DNA from: Escherichia phage vB_EcoS_swi2
DNA length: 47,611 nucleotides
Strand: one strand, 5' to 3'
Sequence record: NC_054649.1
Part shown: positions 4,735-42,657 of the stretch, in pieces
How positions within the stretch are numbered: the stretch's first letter is position 1
Layout of the letters: each line of letters starts with the position of its first letter
Translations under genes and position numbers: made by a program
Notes under the pieces: model-generated
Told to the model about the DNA's origin: nothing
Database searches by the model: none
Seen by the model: only the letters and a program-made list of their open reading frames with translations

Positions 4735-6189
<1,455 letters not shown>

Positions 6190-11079: not shown

Positions 11080-11796
11080 TCAGGATACAGTGCAAGCTGT
11101 ACTGATGATAATTTCAGGGTCAGTAGATGAATCAGTCACTGTAACGGTATATACGCCAGCCGTAGGACTTGCCAGCGATGCGCCTGATTCACCACCAACA
11201 ACTACGCCATCTTTGCGCCACACGTAAGTGTAAGGAGAGATGCCACCTTCAACAACAACCGTTAACGGGCTTCCAGTCGTGCCAGTTGGTTGCAGGTCAG
11301 TAGTGAACTTCAGAGGCTCAAGGCTTTCGACGGTAACGCTGTCAGAATCATACACCTTAAACTCAAGGCTTCCGGTAACGATGTCGTTAGTGCCGCCTTC
11401 GTAGCTGATGCTGGTGATGTTGCAGTACGCGGTAACGATAGTCGCACCAGTCACCTCGCGAACCCACAAGGAAGGCTGGCGACGAGCTTTCAGTTCAGTG
11501 GTGTAAATCTCGACCAGACGATGGAAGCCAAACTCATCGCTCGGGTCATTCTTGCGGATTTCCACTTCTGCGCTGATGGTCATATCAGAGCTGGTAACGA
11601 GAGTGGAAACAAAGCCGCCAGCGGTATCAGCTTCAGACGTGGTAGTCTGCGGTGAGTAGTCAACACCCTTACTGGTGGTTGAGCCTAAATACTTCCAGTC
11701 TTCTGCCTCCGGAACTGCGTCACCGCATCCTTCAGCAAGGAACAGTCGAGTCATACGACCGACCAGAACGCCCTTATCATTTGCACAAATAGCCAT
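11080..11796 (-). CDS. Major tail protein with C-terminal Ig-like domain
   Basis: 238 aa, position at head of tail operon, C-terminal segment TVVVEGGISPYTYVWRKDGVVVGG...GVYTVTVTDSS resembles Big_2-type Ig domain as in lambda V. Confidence 0.6.
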   Translation of the reverse strand: MAICANDKGVLVGRMTRLFLAEGCGDAVPEAEDWKYLGSTTSKGVDYSPQTTTSEADTAGGFVSTLVTSSDMTISAEVEIRKNDPSDEFGFHRLVEIYTTELKARRQPSLWVREVTGATIVTAYCNITSISYEGGTNDIVTGSLEFKVYDSDSVTVESLEPLKFTTDLQPTGTTGSPLTVVVEGGISPYTYVWRKDGVVVGGESGASLASPTAGVYTVTVTDSSTDPEIIISTACTVS

Positions 11797-11831
11797 TTCG
11801 ATCTCCGAATTGTGTTAGCTGCTAACGTGGT

Positions 11832-11840
11832 GATTATATC
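11832..11840 (-). promoter_or_regulatory. Extended -10 promoter element (TGnTATAAT) on minus strand upstream of major tail gene
   Basis: Minus-strand TGATATAAT about 35 nt upstream of ATG 11796. Confidence 0.35.
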
Positions 11841-11847
11841 ACAGGTG

Positions 11848-11876
11848 TTGACAGTGATTATTTTGTGGTGTAGATT
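11848..11876 (+). promoter_or_regulatory. Sigma70-type promoter TTGACA-N17-TAGATT driving the noncoding/tRNA region
   Basis: -35 TTGACA 11848-11853, spacer ends gtggtg, -10 TAGATT 11871-11876; no plus-strand ORF follows, tRNA lies downstream. Confidence 0.5.
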
Positions 11877-12344
11877 GTATTTCAGATAGTTTTCGTGAGC
11901 GACTTTGCGGACTTTTTAGAAACTGATCACAAAGATAAATGCAAACGAAGAAATGTATCTGGCCGTAGCTTAACAGCTAAACACAAGTGAGGTATTCCAG
12001 TTCCTCATCAACGAATCTTGCGCACTGGCCCGGTGTGATTAATAATGGGCACACAACGGAAAGAGCATTACTGGTGACGGAGACTAGCGATTAGCTATAT
12101 GCGAAAGTTCTAGAAGCCAAGGCGGTTCGACTCCGCAAGTGCTCTTTCCGGTGTGGTGAATGCGCAGGCTGATGCGCGCAGGAGAGCTTCGGAAGAACAA
12201 GGTGCCTGTATACAAGCCGGAGATCAGCACCGGCCACCACAATACTTAACATCCAGCATTATCGCAATCATATGTAGGGGTATGTATGGGTTACGGGGCT
12301 GGATGTTAAGAAAGCACGCTGGCAATGCTTAAACCAGCACTTAT

Positions 12345-12421
12345 GGACGCGTAGCTTAATTGGTTAAAGCAACCGACTCATAATCGGCTGATTGAAGGTT
12401 CAAATCCGTCCGTGTCCACCA
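12345..12421 (+). tRNA. tRNA-Met (anticodon CAT; could alternatively be Ile2-type)
   Basis: Acceptor GGACGCG pairs with CGTGTCC, D-stem GCTT/AAGC, anticodon loop CTCATAA, T-loop TTCAAAT, 3-prime CCA encoded; terminator follows. Confidence 0.75.
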
Positions 12422-12427
12422 AATTAA

Positions 12428-12452
12428 AAGCCGCTTTATGCGGCTTTATTTA
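12428..12452. terminator. Terminator hairpin after tRNA
   Basis: gccgc tttat gcggc followed by tttatttatttc. Confidence 0.55.
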
Positions 12453-12866
12453 TTTCACGACCCGTAAAAGCAACTCATGCACAGGACGTTTTTCTTCCGT
12501 CAGCATTGGCCTACCAAGTGGCGCTTGCAACTGGATGTAGTTAACGCATGAATCAATCGGATGCGTCTTGATGTATTCGATAATCTCCAGCGCCTTCGCA
12601 TCAACATCAGCAACGTTGTACTGGCCTTGCTTGCCAACAACATACAGCGAGAAATAGAAGTCACCGCCGAGTCCATCCATCACCTGCGTGCCACCATTGG
12701 ATTGCAGAACAATAAATTGCTCACTTCCATCTCCGGTATCATTCCAGAACTGCAATTGCGAAGTCCAGCCATCATACAATCCGGCATCCTGAAGATATGC
12801 ATCAACCAGCTCAAGCATGTTCATATTAAACCCCAATATTGCAATATCGATGCACATATCATACAC
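12450..12866 (-). CDS. Putative tail completion / head-tail joining protein
   Basis: 138 aa ORF in neck-gene region between capsid and tail modules; function by position only. Confidence 0.35.
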   Translation of the reverse strand: MYDMCIDIAILGFNMNMLELVDAYLQDAGLYDGWTSQLQFWNDTGDGSEQFIVLQSNGGTQVMDGLGGDFYFSLYVVGKQGQYNVADVDAKALEIIEYIKTHPIDSCVNYIQLQAPLGRPMLTEEKRPVHELLLRVVK

Positions 12867-12994
12867 TACCTATGTCACGTAGGCGTGGAACCCGAAACGA
12901 CACACAGGCAACAATGAATTTAACGCCCTTGTCAGTATGGTTTGTTGCAACCATGTTCCACCTGACAGGGGCGTTTCCCTTTTGGAGTGAGTAA

Positions 12995-13486
12995 ATGATT
13001 TCAGAGCGGGATTACATAGCAATCGCGTCAAGGGTTAAATACGACCCGATTACCGGATTGTTCACCTGGGCTGTAAGTTGCGGGAAAATATCAAAAGGTG
13101 ATATTGCAAATTATCACAACGACGCAGGATACATAACACTTGGGAAGAAAAGATTAAGGGCGCACCGAGTGGCTTGGTTTATCCATTATGGATATGTCCC
13201 TGAGCATGAAATTGATCACATAAACAATATTCGTGATGACAATAGAATTTCAAACCTGAGGGAGGCCAGTGACTGCGAGAACGCAAGGAACACAAAGATA
13301 TCTAAATCAAACACGTCTGGATATAAAGGAGTTCATTTTTGCAAGTACACGGGAAAATGGAGAGCCACGGTAAAGATGCATGGGAAAAGCTATCATCTTG
13401 GTAGGTTTTCAGACAAAGAAGCCGCCCATAAAGCCTATTGCAAAAAAGTAGATGAACTGTTTTTGGAGTTCGCAAACCACGGCTAA
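12995..13486 (+). CDS. HNH homing endonuclease with C-terminal AP2 DNA-binding domain
   Basis: HNH_3-type motif AHRVAW...EIDHINNIRDDNRISNLR followed by AP2-like SGYKGVHF...GKWRATV...GKSYHLGRF; opposite strand to flanking structural genes; AT-rich. Confidence 0.8.
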   Translation: MISERDYIAIASRVKYDPITGLFTWAVSCGKISKGDIANYHNDAGYITLGKKRLRAHRVAWFIHYGYVPEHEIDHINNIRDDNRISNLREASDCENARNTKISKSNTSGYKGVHFCKYTGKWRATVKMHGKSYHLGRFSDKEAAHKAYCKKVDELFLEFANHG

Positions 13487-13944
13487 ATCTTCATTTCTTT
13501 TTTTATCACTGAATCAACGAGGCTGCGAGTTTTATCGGCAGCCTTTGTTAAGAATCTAGGTTCAGCATTAGGCGACCAGTACGTGCCATTACCATTACTG
13601 CGTGGTTTACCTGCAAGTTTACCGCTGGCATTGTGGACGTACAGCGCATATTTCGCAGAATAGCCAACCTTGCCAGTGATTCGCGTTCCGCTAACTTCCA
13701 CAGTATCAAACTGACTGTTAATCAGCGTTGATGTGTCAATTGGCGTCAACGTGGCTGATTCGGTGCGGATGATATATGTCGCTGACTTCAGAGCACGCAC
13801 CGCTTTTGTGGCGATTATCTCGTCCACAATCTGCGATGTTCTGGCGATGGCTTCGTTAATACCTTTGAGTTTGGCTGGCATGTTAGCACCACTCCATCCA
13901 TCCAAAGCATTTTTTGTATGCCCCACCACAGGATAAATCATCAC
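13483..13944 (-). CDS. Putative neck / head-tail connector protein (HK97 gp10-like)
   Basis: 153 aa ORF in head-tail joining region; family assignment tentative. Confidence 0.4.
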   Translation of the reverse strand: MMIYPVVGHTKNALDGWSGANMPAKLKGINEAIARTSQIVDEIIATKAVRALKSATYIIRTESATLTPIDTSTLINSQFDTVEVSGTRITGKVGYSAKYALYVHNASGKLAGKPRSNGNGTYWSPNAEPRFLTKAADKTRSLVDSVIKKEMKI

Positions 13945-14079
13945 TTTTTCTTGCGGCCTTGGATGCCTTTCTTTTCCAGTACCTGCCAGACGGTTTTACA
14001 TACGCACTAAACCAGATTCTTGAACCTGATTTGTTTCTGCTCTGTTTGTGGTTCTTGAGATTTAATTTTTCATCTTTCA

Positions 14080-14427
14080 TTATGTAATCAACGCAAAGTC
14101 AGGTGGCTCAGCGCGACTGAACGTATTGCCATAGTTAATCACATTCAGAATCTGGTTTGCGCCAGCCGACAGCGGGTCATCTTCTGTCACCGTGCCAATT
14201 ATGATGTAATCACCTACCTTAGCACCAGTGTATTCTGTCCAGAAAGTATTCTTCTGCACAATCTCATTACCTTTCGCGTCAGTCGATACATCATCGTTAA
14301 AGCCATAATCGCACATGATGCTTACTGGCGCATCAAAAGTTGGCTTGCCGTACTTGTCAGTGCCGCTTTTATGCCAGATGGTGCATGGTTGCGTATAGCT
14401 CCAGTTAGCCAGCGAAGTCATTTGCAT
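14080..14427 (-). CDS. Putative head-tail adaptor protein
   Basis: 115 aa ORF, overlapping-stop arrangement with neighbours in neck cluster. Confidence 0.35.
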   Translation of the reverse strand: MQMTSLANWSYTQPCTIWHKSGTDKYGKPTFDAPVSIMCDYGFNDDVSTDAKGNEIVQKNTFWTEYTGAKVGDYIIIGTVTEDDPLSAGANQILNVINYGNTFSRAEPPDFALIT

Positions 14428-29503: not shown

Positions 29504-30439
29504 TGCTGATTGCCACGCTTCTCGCTGCTTATCAAGCCTTTCCTGCGACGATTCCAGAATAACTGGCTTGCCATCCATTAATAACGCAGGGGTTTGTGCA
29601 CAATGGCAATTATATCTATTGCCATTCTCGCTATAAAACGTGTCAATCTCTTCTGGCGTGTAAAACCGTCCGTGACGAGCGGCGTGCGTCTGGCGAGTTG
29701 TACGCATTAATGCAGACTGCCACAGCATCACCGTCTCAATGCCTAATTCTTCGCGCGCCTCAATGACCTCTCGCCTGTTTGCCTGCCGAAGTGTTCCGGT
29801 GATTTCTGTCTGCGCAATCTGTTTTGCGTAGCTGTGGGAAACGTCAACTCGCTTAACAATGTCAGCTTCAACATCGCGAGGATTAGCGCCACGGGCAATG
29901 CCTTCCATAATGACAGACGCCAGTTGCTGACGGGAATAATCACTCAATCCGCGCCAGTCTGAGTAACCTTGCGTATAAGCCAGTTGCAGTCGATTCAGAT
30001 AAGGCTCACTGTAGAGTATCGCGGAAATCGGCCTTTGCTCGGCGTAAACCGGAGACAGGCTTGACAGTTCAGAGTTGGCCTTCTGCGTGCCTGCTTGATA
30101 CGCATCACCGATGAATACATTGGCCCACATCCTGCCGTGATCAAGATCATCACCTTCAAGAAGAATCTCGTCAATAAGTGCCTGCAACTCATCCATGAAA
30201 GTGGCAGCCCGCGCACTGCTGAAATCGTAGAAATACAGACCGCTTGATTCTGCGTTGGTCTGACCGTTCGGAATGGTGCGAAACAGCTCAAGTGCACGAG
30301 TCCTGAGCTGTTTGTATTTGCGCGTTATCACCTTATCCATCTTCGACAGGCGGGTTGCAGCGCCTAACGGGTCGGTCAGACTCTGCGATATGCGCGGTTG
30401 TGGTAGTCTTGCGTTAAACCGGAGTATCTTCATTTTCAT
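29483..30439 (-). CDS. Putative head morphogenesis protein
   Basis: Immediately downstream of portal gene and overlapping its 3-prime end; start at MKMK. Confidence 0.45.
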
Positions 30440-31826
30440 CTTCCGGCGGTGTGTCTTCGCGATAGCTTTCGTCAAGTTCAATCGGCTCCATACCAACCAT
30501 TCCGCGAGCCTCATCGACAGTCAGCAACGCAGATTGACCAGCATCAAAGAACGACTTGTTCGCAGTGGCGAGCTTGGACAGCAACTCCGCTTTATCCAGT
30601 TCTGAAGGCGCAAGCAGGTCATCCCACTTAACCTTGTAGCCATTTGCCGGGGCTTTATCGACAACACCAAACTGAATCATGCGCTCAACGAACATTGAGA
30701 TGACATAATCAACCCATGTTTCGCGGCGCTGCTTGGCTGTCATTGCCTCCTGCATCTTGTCTTCATCGCTCGCAAGGCGTCCGGTTTGCTGGCCAAAAAT
30801 GACGGTGAACGGAAGCGCCATTGATGCAGCGAACTGGTTGGCAGCAACTTCCCATGTGGGTTTTGGGTCGGCTGGCGTTACAGCAAGAACCTTAGCATCA
30901 GCCCCCATTGTGAACATAGCTGCGTCAATCCCGGAGTTCAGTGCCTCAATGTTCTCATTCATGATGTCGGTGAGTTCTTCGATATCGACACCCATTGACT
31001 GCGCAAGGCTTGCTGGTGTTACGTTATCCTTCGTGTAGTTTACCGCCAGTTGACGGCTGGCATTCTTCAGGAACCCTTCCGCTGAGCTACCGGAAACCTT
31101 AGCCATGTCGATAAGGCTATTGTAACCAGCGCGCAGCATTGGGATACCACTGAACATGCTGCCGTCAAAACTACCCTCAGCCAGAATGATGATGCGGTCA
31201 GGATGAATCTGCACTGAACGATCAGGCTTACCGTCGCTGTCGAAGTCTTCCACGGCGCTTTCCTGATATTCGTACATCTCAGGCATTCCGTAGTCTTCGC
31301 TGGTTTCATCGTTATTCCACGCACTGACTCGTAGTTGCTCCTCCCACACAGGAATAAAGCGAACGATGGATTTATCTTTAATACGTCTGGTTTTGGTGAT
31401 GTCAACAGGCTCGCTCCACTGGCGACCATCGCGGATTTGCAGGATAACGGCGGAATAGCGGTTGATGGCGTTACGCTTGTCAGCCTCCTTGATAAACGGA
31501 TAGGCTCGCTTCATCATGTCGTTGATGGACAATTCCCACGGCGTTGAATTCTTGTCATCCTCGCCATCTTCGACAACTTCAGGGTATTTCTGCCAGCATT
31601 TATTAATAATACGGTTAATGCCAGCGGCTGCGGCTGGGTGTCGCTCATAGGCGTAGCGGAACATCTCGGCGGTGATCTCCTGCGGGTAGCCGCATTCCGT
31701 CCAGAGTCTGTCGTGCTTCTGGTCGAGATTCTTCCCACCAGCACAAAGCCGTTGCTGCTGAAGCGCCCGGTTATTGTTCGCCACGCGGTCGCGTATATAG
31801 GCGTTTAATGCATCAATTTTGGACAT
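30414..31826 (-). CDS. Portal protein
   Basis: 470 aa ORF, acidic C-terminus, position between terminase and head morphogenesis genes. Confidence 0.55.
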
Positions 31827-34091: not shown

Positions 34092-34117
34092 GCCCTCGAA
34101 TGAGGGCTTTATTTTAT
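34090..34117. terminator. Bidirectional terminator hairpin
   Basis: agccctc gaat gagggct followed by TTTATTTTAT. Confidence 0.55.
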
Positions 34118-35538
34118 CGCCTGCGCCGGATTAGCATTCCACTACCGCGCTGAACTATATGGTCATTAAGTGCGTAACGAACCGCGTCCCAATAGTGGTT
34201 GTATGCATCAACAATATCAGTCAGCACATTCCCTGTCAGCTTATCAACTTTGTAGCTGTACATTACCGCCTCATTCTGCATCTCCTTGCATCGCTCATGA
34301 ATGATGATGCTGTCACAGCCACGCAGCCACGTTACACCATCCTCAACGCTTCCCGGCCATTTCGTGCACGGGTGGATATCGAATCCAGAACGCTTGATGT
34401 GACTGATGGTTTCAGGTCGAGCGCAGTCGGCATACCATCGTGCGCGCTTAGCCATCGGGAATGATTGCTCCATCGCAGCCGGTGTATCGGTAATCTCAAG
34501 CCCCACCTTGCCGTACTCGCGATTAATATAAATGTTGCGCCGCCCACCTGGTAACTCCTCGATGTAAACCTCAACCATCGCGGTAGGGTCCGTGCTGAAT
34601 CCGAAGTCCATCCCGAAATATGGGCCATGCCATTCAGGTTTGACCTCGAAGTTATCAATTCGCCACTTGCCGCCGAAGACCTGTTCGTCGCTACGCTTGT
34701 TGAACTTGCCTTCCCATATCCACATGTAGCGGTCGAAATCGACGCGCTTCATTTGCTCCATAGCGGATGGCAACGGCGTATCCCAGAACCACGGGTTGTC
34801 TGAATAGTTACATTCGATAATCAGAATTTCATCATTTTCGAAGATGCCATCAACCATCTGTGAGTGATAGGGGGCAATCCAGTTTTTCCATGTGGGGTCT
34901 GTTTCCTTGTTTGGGTTGAATGAGCACCACAGTTCGGAATTGGCAGCACGGATGGTAGGCACAAGAATATCCCAGCTTGTCTGGCTGACGTTCTCTGCTT
35001 CCTCTACCCAACCGACGGTAATCCCAGCAAAACCCTTAACTGTAGTCTGATTGCGATACAACCCCTTAAAGCGAAATTTGGCCTTAGTCTTTTTGTGTGT
35101 TATCTCGTTGTTGATAACGCGAAACTCTGCCGATTCACCCTTGCGGGCTATCTCATCAACAAGCTCCTGATAGCTTGAGTCTTCAATGGATTGCTGAATC
35201 TCACGAAAACAGGCAAAGCGGTCAGGGCGAAACCTTGCGCGCTCAGTGAGTATAGTGATAATCGTTCTTGTCTTGCCTGACCCGCGGCCACCGTAGATAA
35301 ACTTGAATCGTTTTGGGTAAAGCAGGCGCTCCAGTTTTGCGGGAATCAGGTGGTCAGCATGAGTGGTTGCATTTGTCACGTCATCAACGCCAGTGGCGGT
35401 CATCCTTAGCCGTTTGATGACGTTTTTCTGTATGTCGCAGATGCCAAAAATGGCTGACTCGGCGACATCTGTCATTTCATCATCAATCTGCGCTTCCAGC
35501 TTTTCGATTGCCAGCGCGGAGAGGCGTTTACGAGCCAT
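34114..35538 (-). CDS. Terminase large subunit
   Basis: Walker A YGGRGSGKT near N-terminus, 474 aa, position upstream of portal. Confidence 0.85.
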   Translation of the reverse strand: MARKRLSALAIEKLEAQIDDEMTDVAESAIFGICDIQKNVIKRLRMTATGVDDVTNATTHADHLIPAKLERLLYPKRFKFIYGGRGSGKTRTIITILTERARFRPDRFACFREIQQSIEDSSYQELVDEIARKGESAEFRVINNEITHKKTKAKFRFKGLYRNQTTVKGFAGITVGWVEEAENVSQTSWDILVPTIRAANSELWCSFNPNKETDPTWKNWIAPYHSQMVDGIFENDEILIIECNYSDNPWFWDTPLPSAMEQMKRVDFDRYMWIWEGKFNKRSDEQVFGGKWRIDNFEVKPEWHGPYFGMDFGFSTDPTAMVEVYIEELPGGRRNIYINREYGKVGLEITDTPAAMEQSFPMAKRARWYADCARPETISHIKRSGFDIHPCTKWPGSVEDGVTWLRGCDSIIIHERCKEMQNEAVMYSYKVDKLTGNVLTDIVDAYNHYWDAVRYALNDHIVQRGSGMLIRRRR

Positions 35539-40954: not shown

Positions 40955-40982
40955 AAAACCCTCCGATTGGAGGGTTTTTGTT
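40955..40982. terminator. Bidirectional terminator hairpin
   Basis: aaaccctcc gatt ggagggttt followed by TTTGTTAT. Confidence 0.6.
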
Positions 40983-41934
40983 ATCTGATGACTGACATTT
41001 TCTCTATCAACTCGCCAGCGTCATAAATCTTTCTCCTGATTCTCTTTGCCATCCTGATTGTGTCAGCATCATCAGGTAGCATCACCGGAAGGCCTGCATT
41101 CTCTGCGGCGCACAGCTCGTCGAATTTATAATTAACTATGCAGCGTAACCGTGCTTTCGTCTCATCGCTAACAGAACGCACCACTTCCCACATGTTTTCC
41201 GGTGACCAGCAGCACCAGACATGGGCGCCAGTGAAGTAATGGCATTTCCACGCATCGGCATAATCAGATGCCAGGTAAATGAACTTTCCGTTGTCTTCTC
41301 CGATTGGACTTATCGCTCCGCGCGTGAGCTTTCCGTTGATAGCTGAGTCTTTGTTGTATCCAGCACGGAAAAACGTTCTGAATAAATCACCATCCATGCC
41401 AATGAATGCCACGTTGCACGGCTTCATTGTGTCAGCGCGCATCATCTCAACCGCAATAAGCTCTCCAGATTTACCTCTGGTGACATTAACGTCGCAACCA
41501 ATACCATTTATCAATGTCCACTCATTCATCGCGACACGCGTCGTTTTGGCCATGATTGCTGCGACTTCCTGCTCGGTGATGAAGTTATCGTTGTAATTTA
41601 TCTTCGGCAACTCCTTCCTAATTGCCTCCAGCTTTTCACGCGGGTGCATATTCAGGAATCCACCAAGTGCCTCCAGTGCTTCGGGAAAGCTCATGCCTGA
41701 AAGTTTCATCAGCCAGTTCATGCCGCTACCGGAACCGCACTGATTGCATATTGCGCCGCCGTCGCCTTTTGTTTCGAAGTTGTCATCGAAGCGATACCTG
41801 TCTTTTCCTGAGCATGACGGGCATGGCTGATGCTTGCCATTGAAAACTCTGCTATCCACATTGACGATAGACATGATGGCGGCTTGCCAGTTGCCAAGCA
41901 TTTTTGGCTCAATGTCTTTCCAGTAGTATCTCAT
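40981..41934 (-). CDS. Putative DNA primase with zinc-binding motif
   Basis: CPSCSG...CNQCGSG zinc-ribbon near N-terminus; start at MRYYW with AGGAAG RBS. Confidence 0.5.
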   Translation of the reverse strand: MRYYWKDIEPKMLGNWQAAIMSIVNVDSRVFNGKHQPCPSCSGKDRYRFDDNFETKGDGGAICNQCGSGSGMNWLMKLSGMSFPEALEALGGFLNMHPREKLEAIRKELPKINYNDNFITEQEVAAIMAKTTRVAMNEWTLINGIGCDVNVTRGKSGELIAVEMMRADTMKPCNVAFIGMDGDLFRTFFRAGYNKDSAINGKLTRGAISPIGEDNGKFIYLASDYADAWKCHYFTGAHVWCCWSPENMWEVVRSVSDETKARLRCIVNYKFDELCAAENAGLPVMLPDDADTIRMAKRIRRKIYDAGELIEKMSVIR

Positions 41935-41946
41935 AAAATCTTCCTG

Positions 41947-41975
41947 TTGACTGTGATGTAGAATCATTGTAATTT
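41947..41975 (+). promoter_or_regulatory. Sigma70-type promoter TTGACT-N17-TAATTT
   Basis: Contains conserved GTGATGTAGAATC spacer motif. Confidence 0.45.
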
Positions 41976-41981
41976 ACTCAC

Positions 41982-42026
41982 ATGAAACAATCAATCGTTA
42001 CTTGCAATGAAACAATTAATCGTTAC
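41982..42026 (+). repeat. Tandem 20-bp direct repeat ATGAAACAAT(C/T)AATCGTTAC x2
   Basis: Copies at 41982-42001 and 42007-42026, 19/20 identical, 5 nt apart, immediately downstream of promoter. Confidence 0.7.
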
Positions 42027-42041
42027 AATAGAGGATAAGAA

Positions 42042-42194
42042 ATGGCTATCACCGTTAAGAAGTGCGAGGTTTGCGGAAATGAGTTTATCGGAACTGCAAA
42101 AGCAAAATGTTGCTCAGGAAAGTGCAGATTGCGCAAGCACAGACAGAAGAAAAACCCAATTCATAACTCAAAAACAGATAATGGAATATCTTGA
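42042..42194 (+). CDS. Small zinc-ribbon protein
   Basis: 50 aa ORF with C-x2-C ... CC-x3-C; GAGGA RBS; overlaps HNH start. Confidence 0.35.
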   Translation: MAITVKKCEVCGNEFIGTAKAKCCSGKCRLRKHRQKKNPIHNSKTDNGIS

Positions 42195-42654
42195 ATATAA
42201 CCCTGAGACTGGTGTTTTTACAGCTGCAAAAACACATGGAACACTCTGGCGTAAAGGCAAGATTGTTGGGCATAAGAATAAGGCAGGGTACATCACCATC
42301 ACGCTACTGGGAAAACTAAGGAAAGCTCACAGGCTGGCATGGATTTATGTTTATGGAGAAGATATAGATGGGTATGAAATAGACCATATAAATGGTGACA
42401 AATCAGACAATAGAATTTGCAACCTTAGGATTTCTAGTCACCAACAAAACATGTTCAACATGAAAAAGAAATCAACAAATAAATCTGGTGTAAAAGGTGT
42501 GCATTTCGATAAAGGGTGCAACAAATGGAGAGCGCAGACATCAATAAACAAGAAGAGGGTTCATCTTGGTTTGTTTGACACCATAGAATCAGCAGAAAAG
42601 GCGATTCGTGAATTCATGGTTGCTAACCATAAAGAGTTTATTAATTTAGGGTGA
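42181..42654 (+). CDS. HNH homing endonuclease with AP2 domain (paralog of 12995..13486)
   Basis: AHRLAW...EIDHINGDKSDNRICNLR and SGVKGVHF...NKWRAQ motifs; track ORF starts upstream at 42007 without RBS, so internal ATG preferred. Confidence 0.75.
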   Translation: MEYLEYNPETGVFTAAKTHGTLWRKGKIVGHKNKAGYITITLLGKLRKAHRLAWIYVYGEDIDGYEIDHINGDKSDNRICNLRISSHQQNMFNMKKKSTNKSGVKGVHFDKGCNKWRAQTSINKKRVHLGLFDTIESAEKAIREFMVANHKEFINLG

Positions 42655-42657
42655 GTT

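Follow-up and report, generated by a model that had tools for sequence, protein, structure and literature searches.

I-HmuI is an intron-encoded nuclease whose C-terminal DNA-binding region is of the helix-turn-helix type. Free-standing endonucleases of HNN-AP2 architecture have been described from the Xanthomonas phages Xp10, OP1, and Xop411, from T1 and T5, and from the T4-related phages RB16, RB43, RB49, and JSE (PMC2248197, PMC2993671), and the plant AP2 domain has been proposed to derive from homing endonucleases (Magnani et al. 2004, cited in PMC2993671). The homing endonuclease genes (HEGs) of the T4 type are regulated by terminators and hairpins; one of them, seg43(25), has a stable hairpin just upstream of its ribosome-binding site (RBS) (PMC2988022). 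In this study, we analyzed a plus-strand open reading frame (ORF) at 12995..13486 of Escherichia phage vB_EcoS_swi2 (NC_054649.1; the whole stretch of 47,611 nt is hereafter called the window), which had originally been predicted to encode an HNH-AP2 homing endonuclease inserted in the neck gene cluster.

The phage is a small Skatevirus/Akiravirus-like siphophage, the relatives of which include Salmonella phages LPST10, BS5, seszw, and Akira and Escherichia phages C1 and Bas80. Our literature search found no description of HEGs in Skatevirus, nor of the leader sequence reported below. With a probability of about 0.85, we regard the ORF as the predicted nuclease gene of a free-standing homing endonuclease cassette (12825..~13560) in this phage, its product combining an I-HmuI-type, single-active-site HNN nuclease with an AP2 domain.

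Properties of the ORF product

The ORF encoded a protein of 163 aa, and a Shine-Dalgarno sequence, GGAG (12984..12987, plus strand), was located 7 nt before its ATG, as in all three of the cassette types compared in this study (type A in the window, and types B and C in related phages). A profile search supported both of the domains that had been predicted. Pfam HNH_3 (PF13392) matched residues 55-98 with 57.7 bits (E = 9e-16; curated cut-off, 24.8 bits), and PHROG_99, 'HNH endonuclease', matched the protein with E = 1.5e-66, so the motif had rightly been called clear. This HNH/ββα-Me region (nt 13157-13288, plus strand) was found by both the profile and the predicted structure, and so was the AP2 domain (PF00847) at residues 106-160 (nt 13310-13474, plus strand), though the Pfam score of the latter for this single protein was low, as weighed below.

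The protein had 214 homologues, most of which contained both Pfam domains, with PF00847 precomputed in most. When a family profile built from 66 of the homologues was compared with solved structures, residues 106-160 matched the plant AP2/ERF structures WRI1 (E = 7e-12), TEM1, ERF096, and AtERF1, and residues 31-104 matched I-HmuI (1U3E) with E = 1.6e-7 and with the D-H...N...N catalytic positions aligned. Among these 66 homologues, D74, H75, N96, and N99 were invariant, and N87 was nearly so. An AlphaFold (AF2) model of the protein (pLDDT 90.9) contained a β-β-α nuclease core at residues 72-98 (strands 72-75 and 88-91; helix 93-98), followed by an AP2 part with strands at 113-116, 121-128, and 131-138 and a helix at 141-159. 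The top Foldseek matches to the model were AP2/ERF structures, 1GCC being superposed with a root-mean-square deviation of 1.1 Å over 49 residues (probability 1.00), and I-HmuI ranked fifth (probability 0.90, E 0.037). These results support the assignment of the ORF product as an I-HmuI-like HNH ('HNN') nuclease fused to a C-terminal AP2/ERF DNA-binding domain, with predicted activity.

Insertion site and distribution

As had been noted from the sequence, the plus-strand ORF was located between two minus-strand structural genes. The downstream host gene (12450..12824, minus strand) encoded a tail terminator of 124 aa (PF23842, E = 9e-41; start taken from the alignment with relatives), and the upstream host gene (13483..13881, minus strand) encoded a tail completion/Neck1 protein of 132 aa (HK97 gp10-like; phrog_5, E = 5.5e-15; start taken from the annotation of relatives). 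The placement in the neck was apt, 'neck/tail-completion cluster' being an accurate description, with the major tail protein gene (11080..11796) lying downstream. Two details of the original prediction needed correction. The ORF had been called AT-rich, and its GC content was indeed lower than that of the window (41.9% vs 46.3%), but the bias was mild, at the 14th percentile of 492-nt windows. The 4-nt overlap with the upstream gene was real (CTAA, 13483-13486), but it was a convergent, stop-to-stop, 3'-3' overlap and not an overlap with the start codon of the neighbour: the four bases contain both stops, TAA on the plus strand and TAG on the minus strand.

Carrier and empty loci were compared by alignments anchored on the two host genes. 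In the empty alleles of C1 and ZCEC08, the two genes overlap by one base (TAATG). In the window, homology to these HEG-less phages ended right after CAT (12822-12824), so that the left border lay exactly after the tail-terminator start codon (12824/12825), and the flank on this side showed no unusual divergence. The left insertion junction (12825..12838) read on the minus strand is GGGGTTTAAT and precedes the ATG of the tail terminator; GGGGTTTAAT is possibly a replacement Shine-Dalgarno sequence for this gene, the coupling of which to the upstream gene is broken by the insertion.

The insertion was a precise presence/absence polymorphism at one site. The ORF was found at the identical site in Akira and was absent from C1 and ZCEC08. 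Among 42 IMG/VR contigs recovered through the tail-completion protein, the ORF was present at the site in five, and about 36 were empty, with the host genes abutting or overlapping there. Furthermore, the comparison of the window with seszw, BS5, LPST10, and VSt472 showed that the leader, the ORF, and the adjoining end of the tail-completion gene were 99.4-100% identical, versus 83-89% in the adjoining genes. Such a sharp change of identity at the borders of the cassette indicates that it spread laterally, and recently, among backbones that had diverged.

Deletions in seszw also affected the gene. A CRISPR-based genome-reduction (CiPGr) study (PMC9825161) does not mention it, and we used the deposited genomes. 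At least 23 of the listed genome-reduced mutants retained only nt 1-177 of the insert and had lost the ORF, and in clone 40L a deletion extended from the ATG of the ORF to 31 nt before its stop. The ORF is thus judged, from these genomes, to be dispensable for the phage.

These data bear on a different role for the protein. HNH proteins in the structural modules of siphophages are reportedly packaging cofactors in some cases, and the present one might act on terminase as HK97 gp74 does in cos phages. The large terminase (34114..35538) and portal (30414..31826) genes are, however, roughly 17-21 kb away, and the protein is of the HNH_3/I-HmuI type with AP2, not of the terminase-associated type. 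Moreover, the gene is absent from most relatives and deleted in viable seszw mutants. On the grounds of distance, dispensability, and absence from most relatives, we rejected the terminase-cofactor role, which we consider extremely improbable.

Recoded end of the tail-completion gene

The last 78 nt of the tail-completion gene, including the stop (13483..13560, minus strand), differed between carrier and empty alleles. In this tract, carriers were only 52-63% identical to empty alleles, whereas empty alleles were 86-90% identical among themselves and carriers 99-100%; beyond about 90 nt from the gene end, all comparisons returned to 84-95%. The GC content of the tract was 37%, like that of the cassette, versus 49% in the rest of the gene. 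In spite of this recoding, the encoded peptide was largely preserved (...AADKTRSLVDSVIKKEMKI vs ...AAQRTKDLVDSVIKKEMKL). The recoded flank was one-sided, on the side of the tail-completion gene. Since the recoded end shares the behaviour and composition of the cassette, we include it in the mobile unit, which is in this analysis a 736-nt cassette, 12825..~13560, inserted antisense between the tail-completion and tail-terminator genes.

From its position and divergence, the tract 13483..13560 is the probable region of the nuclease target in empty alleles. It may have been selected for destroying the site of the enzyme, or it may be a co-converted piece between the cut site and the gene. Either origin would place the target within or at the edge of this ~80-bp interval, and with either origin the recoded tract marks the converted interval.

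Other cassettes carrying HNH-AP2 genes

Two further cassette types were found in related phages. In type B (Skate, LPSTLL, IME207, SCNJ1-C, and ECO95), the leader described in the next section is located upstream of a different 163-aa HNH-AP2 ORF (42% aa identity). This cassette, also antisense, separates two minor-tail genes that lie downstream of the tape-measure gene, and the last ~50 nt of the upstream gene are recoded and invariant in carriers. The corresponding site in the window is empty and consists of the TAATG stop/start junction of the two minor-tail genes (5668..5674, minus strand). Type C has a 162-aa ORF, 40-45% identical to those of types A and B, and is inserted antisense immediately upstream of the tail-completion gene; the stop codons of the ORF and of the upstream gene adjoin but share no bases, and no more than ~15 nt at the end of that gene appear recoded. 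The sequence upstream of the type C leader is unrelated to that of types A and B, with a similar promoter-like geometry.

In a more distant phage of ~46.8 kb (contigs L078/L079, 2696-3492), the tail-completion/tail-terminator site was likewise occupied by an HNH-AP2 gene (55% identical), the stop of which overlapped that of the neighbouring gene by 4 nt as in the window. Here an overlapping gene for an Xre-type helix-turn-helix protein (HTH_37, E = 1.3e-11) replaces the leader before the HNH-AP2 gene. This replacement suggests that the 5' module of these cassettes may be an interchangeable control device.

The same comparisons bear on the alternative that the ORF encodes a resident, non-mobile (domesticated or decaying) nuclease or DNA-binding protein, perhaps serving inter-phage competition or regulation, and that its patchy occurrence reflects ordinary mosaic recombination. 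Mosaicism is in any case general in the genomes of this group, in which the islands of tRNA genes and morons beside the locus vary, and the leader shows that modules are shuffled with no need for homing. Against this, the catalytic residues are intact and invariant, the identity breaks exactly at the cassette borders (99.4-100% vs 83-89%), and the element-linked recoded flank is on one side only. Type B has the same layout with a comparable recoded flank elsewhere in the genome, and type C has the layout with no more than ~15 recoded nt. Such patterns are predicted by homing and are not expected from random mosaicism, and we consider a non-mobile resident gene unlikely. The proposal of an inserted, selfish homing endonuclease held in every available test at the sequence level, namely polymorphism (also of the paralog described below), discontinuity of identity, recoded flank, and dispensability; together with the intact catalytic residues, these are the expected signatures of a free-standing HEG.

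A conserved leader upstream of the ORF

The left border and the ATG are separated by 170 nt, of which the stretch 12839..12987 recurs at ~90% identity in other phages. Reading the sequence, we noted promoter-like hexamers (12839..12867, plus strand), TTGCAA (12839-12844) and TACACT (12862-12867) separated by 17 nt. Both versions of the upstream sequence (types A/B and type C) have this arrangement (TTGCAA/TTGAAA, 17 nt, TACACT/TACCAT), which ends 6 nt before a conserved G at 12874. The homology of type C to types A and B starts at the G equivalent to 12874, and the conservation stops just before the RBS. These observations support 12874 as the putative transcription start and the transcribed RNA as the conserved unit.

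This leader of ~110 nt (12874..12983, plus strand) was recognized as common to the three HNH-AP2 cassette types by a covariance model and by the identity between types. The model matched 12874-12987 with 140 bits, the sole copy in the window. The predicted fold consists of a small 5' hairpin and a long hairpin of 14+7 bp (21 bp; 12922..12975, plus strand), within which a terminator scan listed 12953-12974. The U-rich sequence UCCCUUUU (12976-12983) follows directly 3' of the long hairpin, giving it a terminator-like character. Over 10 distinct leaders, 99.6% of the cells were paired, and variable stem positions still paired, with two compensatory pairs; because 26 of 500 shuffles matched the compensatory score, support from covariation is modest.

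Between cassette types, the leader was 88-97% identical at the nucleotide level, whereas the ORFs were 49-53% identical in nucleotides, 34-44% at third positions (near saturation), and 40-45% in amino acids. Within type B (Skate vs SCNJ1-C), the leader and the ORF were both 88% identical (third positions 74%; 89% aa), which implies that the leader is not unusually constrained. Accordingly, the leader appears, from these identities, to have been combined with, or passed between, nuclease genes of this phage group that diverged long ago.

An exact 21-mer of the leader core was found in 14 IMG/VR contigs and 8 metagenome contigs, all phage-like and 37-49 kb in length. It was present in none of 185,579 bacterial and archaeal species genomes, and blastn found no match in E. 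coli genomes; on these grounds, we rejected an origin of the leader from a host or prophage sequence. Neither the window nor 57 related loci, including the regions upstream of their other HNH genes, contained a further or more diverged copy, and no Rfam 15 match at E <= 5 overlapped the core (12874-12983) when 11700-13600 was searched. All 22 leader contigs carried one copy each, and types A, B, and C never occurred together. A genome with two direct copies would have essential tail genes between them and be prone to deletion; however, only about one co-occurrence would be expected by chance.

Two roles for the leader were examined and rejected. It is not a coding upstream ORF: the window and Akira differ by a 1-nt indel that changes the reading frame, and the ATG is missing from SCNJ1-C. 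An RBS-sequestering hairpin could be folded for type A (-13.7 kcal/mol, with 13 of 200 shuffles as good) and also for the Skate type B, but it did not reach significance and was absent in SCNJ1-C.

The leader could instead be the gene of a separate, trans-acting small RNA of ~110 nt, with its own promoter and terminator, that merely lies upstream of the nuclease ORFs. The promoter, the predicted +1, and the terminator-like hairpin do bound a unit, conserved from that +1 to just before the RBS, and the leader is joined to three anciently diverged ORFs. However, among the 22 contigs and the GenBank phages it was found only directly upstream of HNH-AP2 ORFs and never alone, and the search for antisense targets in the window gave matches at chance level only. 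Its 3' part is deletable in viable seszw mutants, and the distant relative has an Xre-type gene in its place, which hints that the leader acts on the nuclease in cis or as a regulator. We therefore consider a separate small RNA gene rather unlikely, if slightly less so than a non-mobile resident nuclease.

The most economical reading of these features is that the leader would be a promoter-proximal attenuator or terminator that holds nuclease expression low. A broader and more tentative proposal, which we would put forward as a minority possibility, is that the leader forms a regulatory RNA module of its own, complete with promoter and terminator-like hairpin, which has moved horizontally and become attached to HNH-AP2 nucleases of at least three anciently separated lineages at three different sites in Skatevirus-like phages. 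It would be a dedicated 'nuclease-taming' RNA, acting either as an attenuator or riboregulator that requires a phage or host factor for read-through or as a stand-alone small RNA.

Proposed mechanism

We propose that, in a mixed infection, the enzyme would nick or cut the cassette-less allele within or beside the last ~80 bp of the tail-completion gene, and that recombinational repair would copy the cassette from the carrier genome. The carrier itself would be protected by the recoding of the target stretch, with the protein sequence largely kept. The build of the cassette would make it harmless: it is antisense and fits exactly between the stop codon of one late gene and the start codon of the next, which normally overlap, and it would provide the first of these genes with a new end and the second with a ribosome-binding region. 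The nuclease would probably be expressed from its own sigma-70-like promoter through the ~110-nt leader, the promoter and +1 being putative, and the leader hairpin with its U-rich tail would end or attenuate most transcription shortly before the RBS is reached, so that nuclease levels would stay low.

Several observations weigh against this interpretation. For the 163-aa protein alone, Pfam AP2 scored 25.5 bits (E = 1.6e-5), under the gathering cut-off of 33.3 bits, and Foldseek gave weak E-values (3e-3 to 4e-2), an effect of the two-domain query. The proposed promoter was not listed by a generic promoter scan, and the U tract UCCCUUUU is interrupted, so that termination may be weak. Two viable seszw mutants have deletions into the hairpin (retaining insert nt 1-133 and 1-155), which implies that the phage itself does not need the leader. 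Finally, co-conversion of part of the original donor's gene, and not selection for immunity, could account for the recoded tract.

The second cassette

The paralog that had been reported at 42181..42654 was real (45% aa identity, E = 2e-35, with HNH_3 and AP2), but its start could be 42007, 42079, or 42181. Its HNH_3 match had E = 3e-18 and its AP2 match E = 6e-8, the latter at 33.2-34.5 bits depending on the start (cut-off 33.3). The claim of at least two family copies also stood, since tblastn found exactly these two in the window. The ORF belongs to a second cassette of 723 nt (41935..42657, plus strand), which replaces a short divergent intergenic region between the primase and helicase genes. 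The site is empty in Akira and holds an unrelated 87-aa ORF in ZCEC08. Compared with VSt472, the cassette and the helicase side were ~98% identical and the primase side 89%. A covariance model search of the window found no copy of the leader at the paralog.

The RefSeq orthologue of the paralog starts at the equivalent of 42007 (215 aa), where there is no Shine-Dalgarno sequence. A second ORF, in another frame, overlaps the 5' part of the paralog (42042..42194, plus strand); it encodes a zinc-ribbon peptide of 50 aa (CxxC...CxxxC) and has a strong Shine-Dalgarno sequence (GAGGA). This peptide matched the zinc-ribbon segment of phrog_1271 HNH endonucleases (E = 1.5e-5), was conserved in 71 phage records, and was also found at 901-1050 of contig L077. 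Skate has the same two-frame layout, with the first ~105 nt of the zinc-ribbon ORF nearly identical and a different, longer HNH protein encoded downstream of it. By this comparison, the zinc-ribbon ORF appears to be a second case of a conserved 5' module before variable nuclease ORFs; its relation to the paralog is possibly translational coupling, a +1 frameshift, or a separate peptide. The mechanically called primase ORF (40981..41967) runs 33 nt into the second cassette (41935-41967), and relatives start at the equivalent of 41934; the N-terminal 'MILHHSQQEDF' of the primase is probably an artefact of the insertion.

Neighbouring loci

A 198-nt segment (13882-14079) next to the tail-completion gene contained a basic 65-aa ORF (13883..14080, minus strand) coupled to the preceding gene through TAATG, and it lay exactly at the type C insertion point of other phages. 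Neither 50,697 phage records nor the compared loci contained a DNA match to it, and the only PHROG match was a weak one to phrog_9362 (E = 0.017). We regard the segment as a unique moron-like insertion of small size in a hot spot of repeated insertion.

Inside the minus-strand late operon, a tRNA-Met (CAT) gene was located at 12345-12421 on the plus strand, followed by a clean terminator-like hairpin (12427-12447). Relatives have tRNA-Met, tRNA-Ile, tRNA-Ser plus tRNA-Arg, or no tRNA at this spot, which makes it a variable tRNA island. Between the major tail gene and the tRNA, ~550 nt (11797-12344) contain no convincing ORF and align poorly among relatives. A transfer-messenger RNA (tmRNA) called by ARAGORN at 12047..12421 was treated as a false positive built on the tRNA-Met, Rfam tmRNA scores being far below threshold: the tmRNA-like matches at 11850-11973 and 11931-11992 reached 13-19 bits against a cut-off of 47 bits and are probably tRNA remnants or false positives.

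The major tail protein (11080..11796, minus strand) has a C-terminal Ig-like (Hoc-like decoration) domain at residues ~154-237 (phrog_2973/4069), and its label as 'neck whiskers' or 'fibritin' in several GenBank relatives appears to be a mis-annotation. The top query coverage of the neck region (86%) was given by OR544125.1, recorded as 'Acinetobacter phage vB_AbaM_AB4P2' with A. baumannii as the host; since it is 92% identical to the present Skatevirus-like genome of the Salmonella/E. coli group, the host or morphotype label of this record appears doubtful.

Comparison with known systems

What is new here is the exact anatomy of the cassette, the recoded host-gene end that marks the probable target interval, and the ~110-nt leader common to three cassettes; only the leader has some claim to novelty, with a function that we infer from its features. 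The exact borders allow the clean removal of the cassette when therapeutic Salmonella or E. coli phages are engineered, and an interval of ~80 bp for the expected target makes the specificity directly testable. The tail-gene flank dragged along with the element is a caveat for phylogenies based on these genes. The leader also raises the question of why three such diverged nuclease ORFs share a 5' RNA and whether this RNA limits nuclease toxicity.

The nuclease gene itself is unremarkable: it belongs to a well-known class that is common in phages, and GenBank already contains annotated copies that are nearly identical to it. Orthologues occupy this very site in Salmonella phages LPST10, VB_StyS_BS5, Seszw_1/seszw, 64795_sal3, and Akira and in 'Acinetobacter' vB_AbaM_AB4P2, with the 658-nt insert 97-99.8% identical and the protein cluster 98% identical. 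These records label the coding sequence as 'homing endonuclease', 'HNH endonuclease', or 'AP2 domain protein', and the leader, the borders, and the recoded flank are unannotated.

The HNN-AP2 endonucleases of the Xanthomonas and T4-related phages have the same architecture, with the boxes HRLAW, DH, DNR, NLR, and EN, and they occur in multiple copies per genome and patchily (PMC2248197, PMC2993671). Lee et al. (PMC2248197) found no conserved flanking sequences, whereas the three cassette types compared here share the leader, and two of them have a recoded host-gene end. The free-standing HEGs of T4 (mobE, segF, segB, and segG; 'intronless homing') resemble the present gene in being intergenic between essential genes, in the co-conversion of flanks (marker exclusion), and in control by terminators or hairpins near the 5' end (PMC2988022). 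They differ in belonging to other nuclease families or subfamilies and in using T4-specific promoters, and they are mostly co-oriented with their neighbours, whereas the present cassettes are antisense to the late operon. With the nicking enzyme I-HmuI of phage SPO1 (1U3E), the protein shares a homologous N-terminal sheet and the HNH/HNN catalytic motif; I-HmuI is encoded in an intron, however, whereas the present gene is free-standing and has a C-terminal AP2 domain. The plant AP2/ERF domains (AtERF1, 1GCC; TEM1, 7ET4; WRI1, 7WQ5) have the same fold and match by profile, but those proteins are transcription factors, whereas here the AP2 domain is predicted to target a nuclease.

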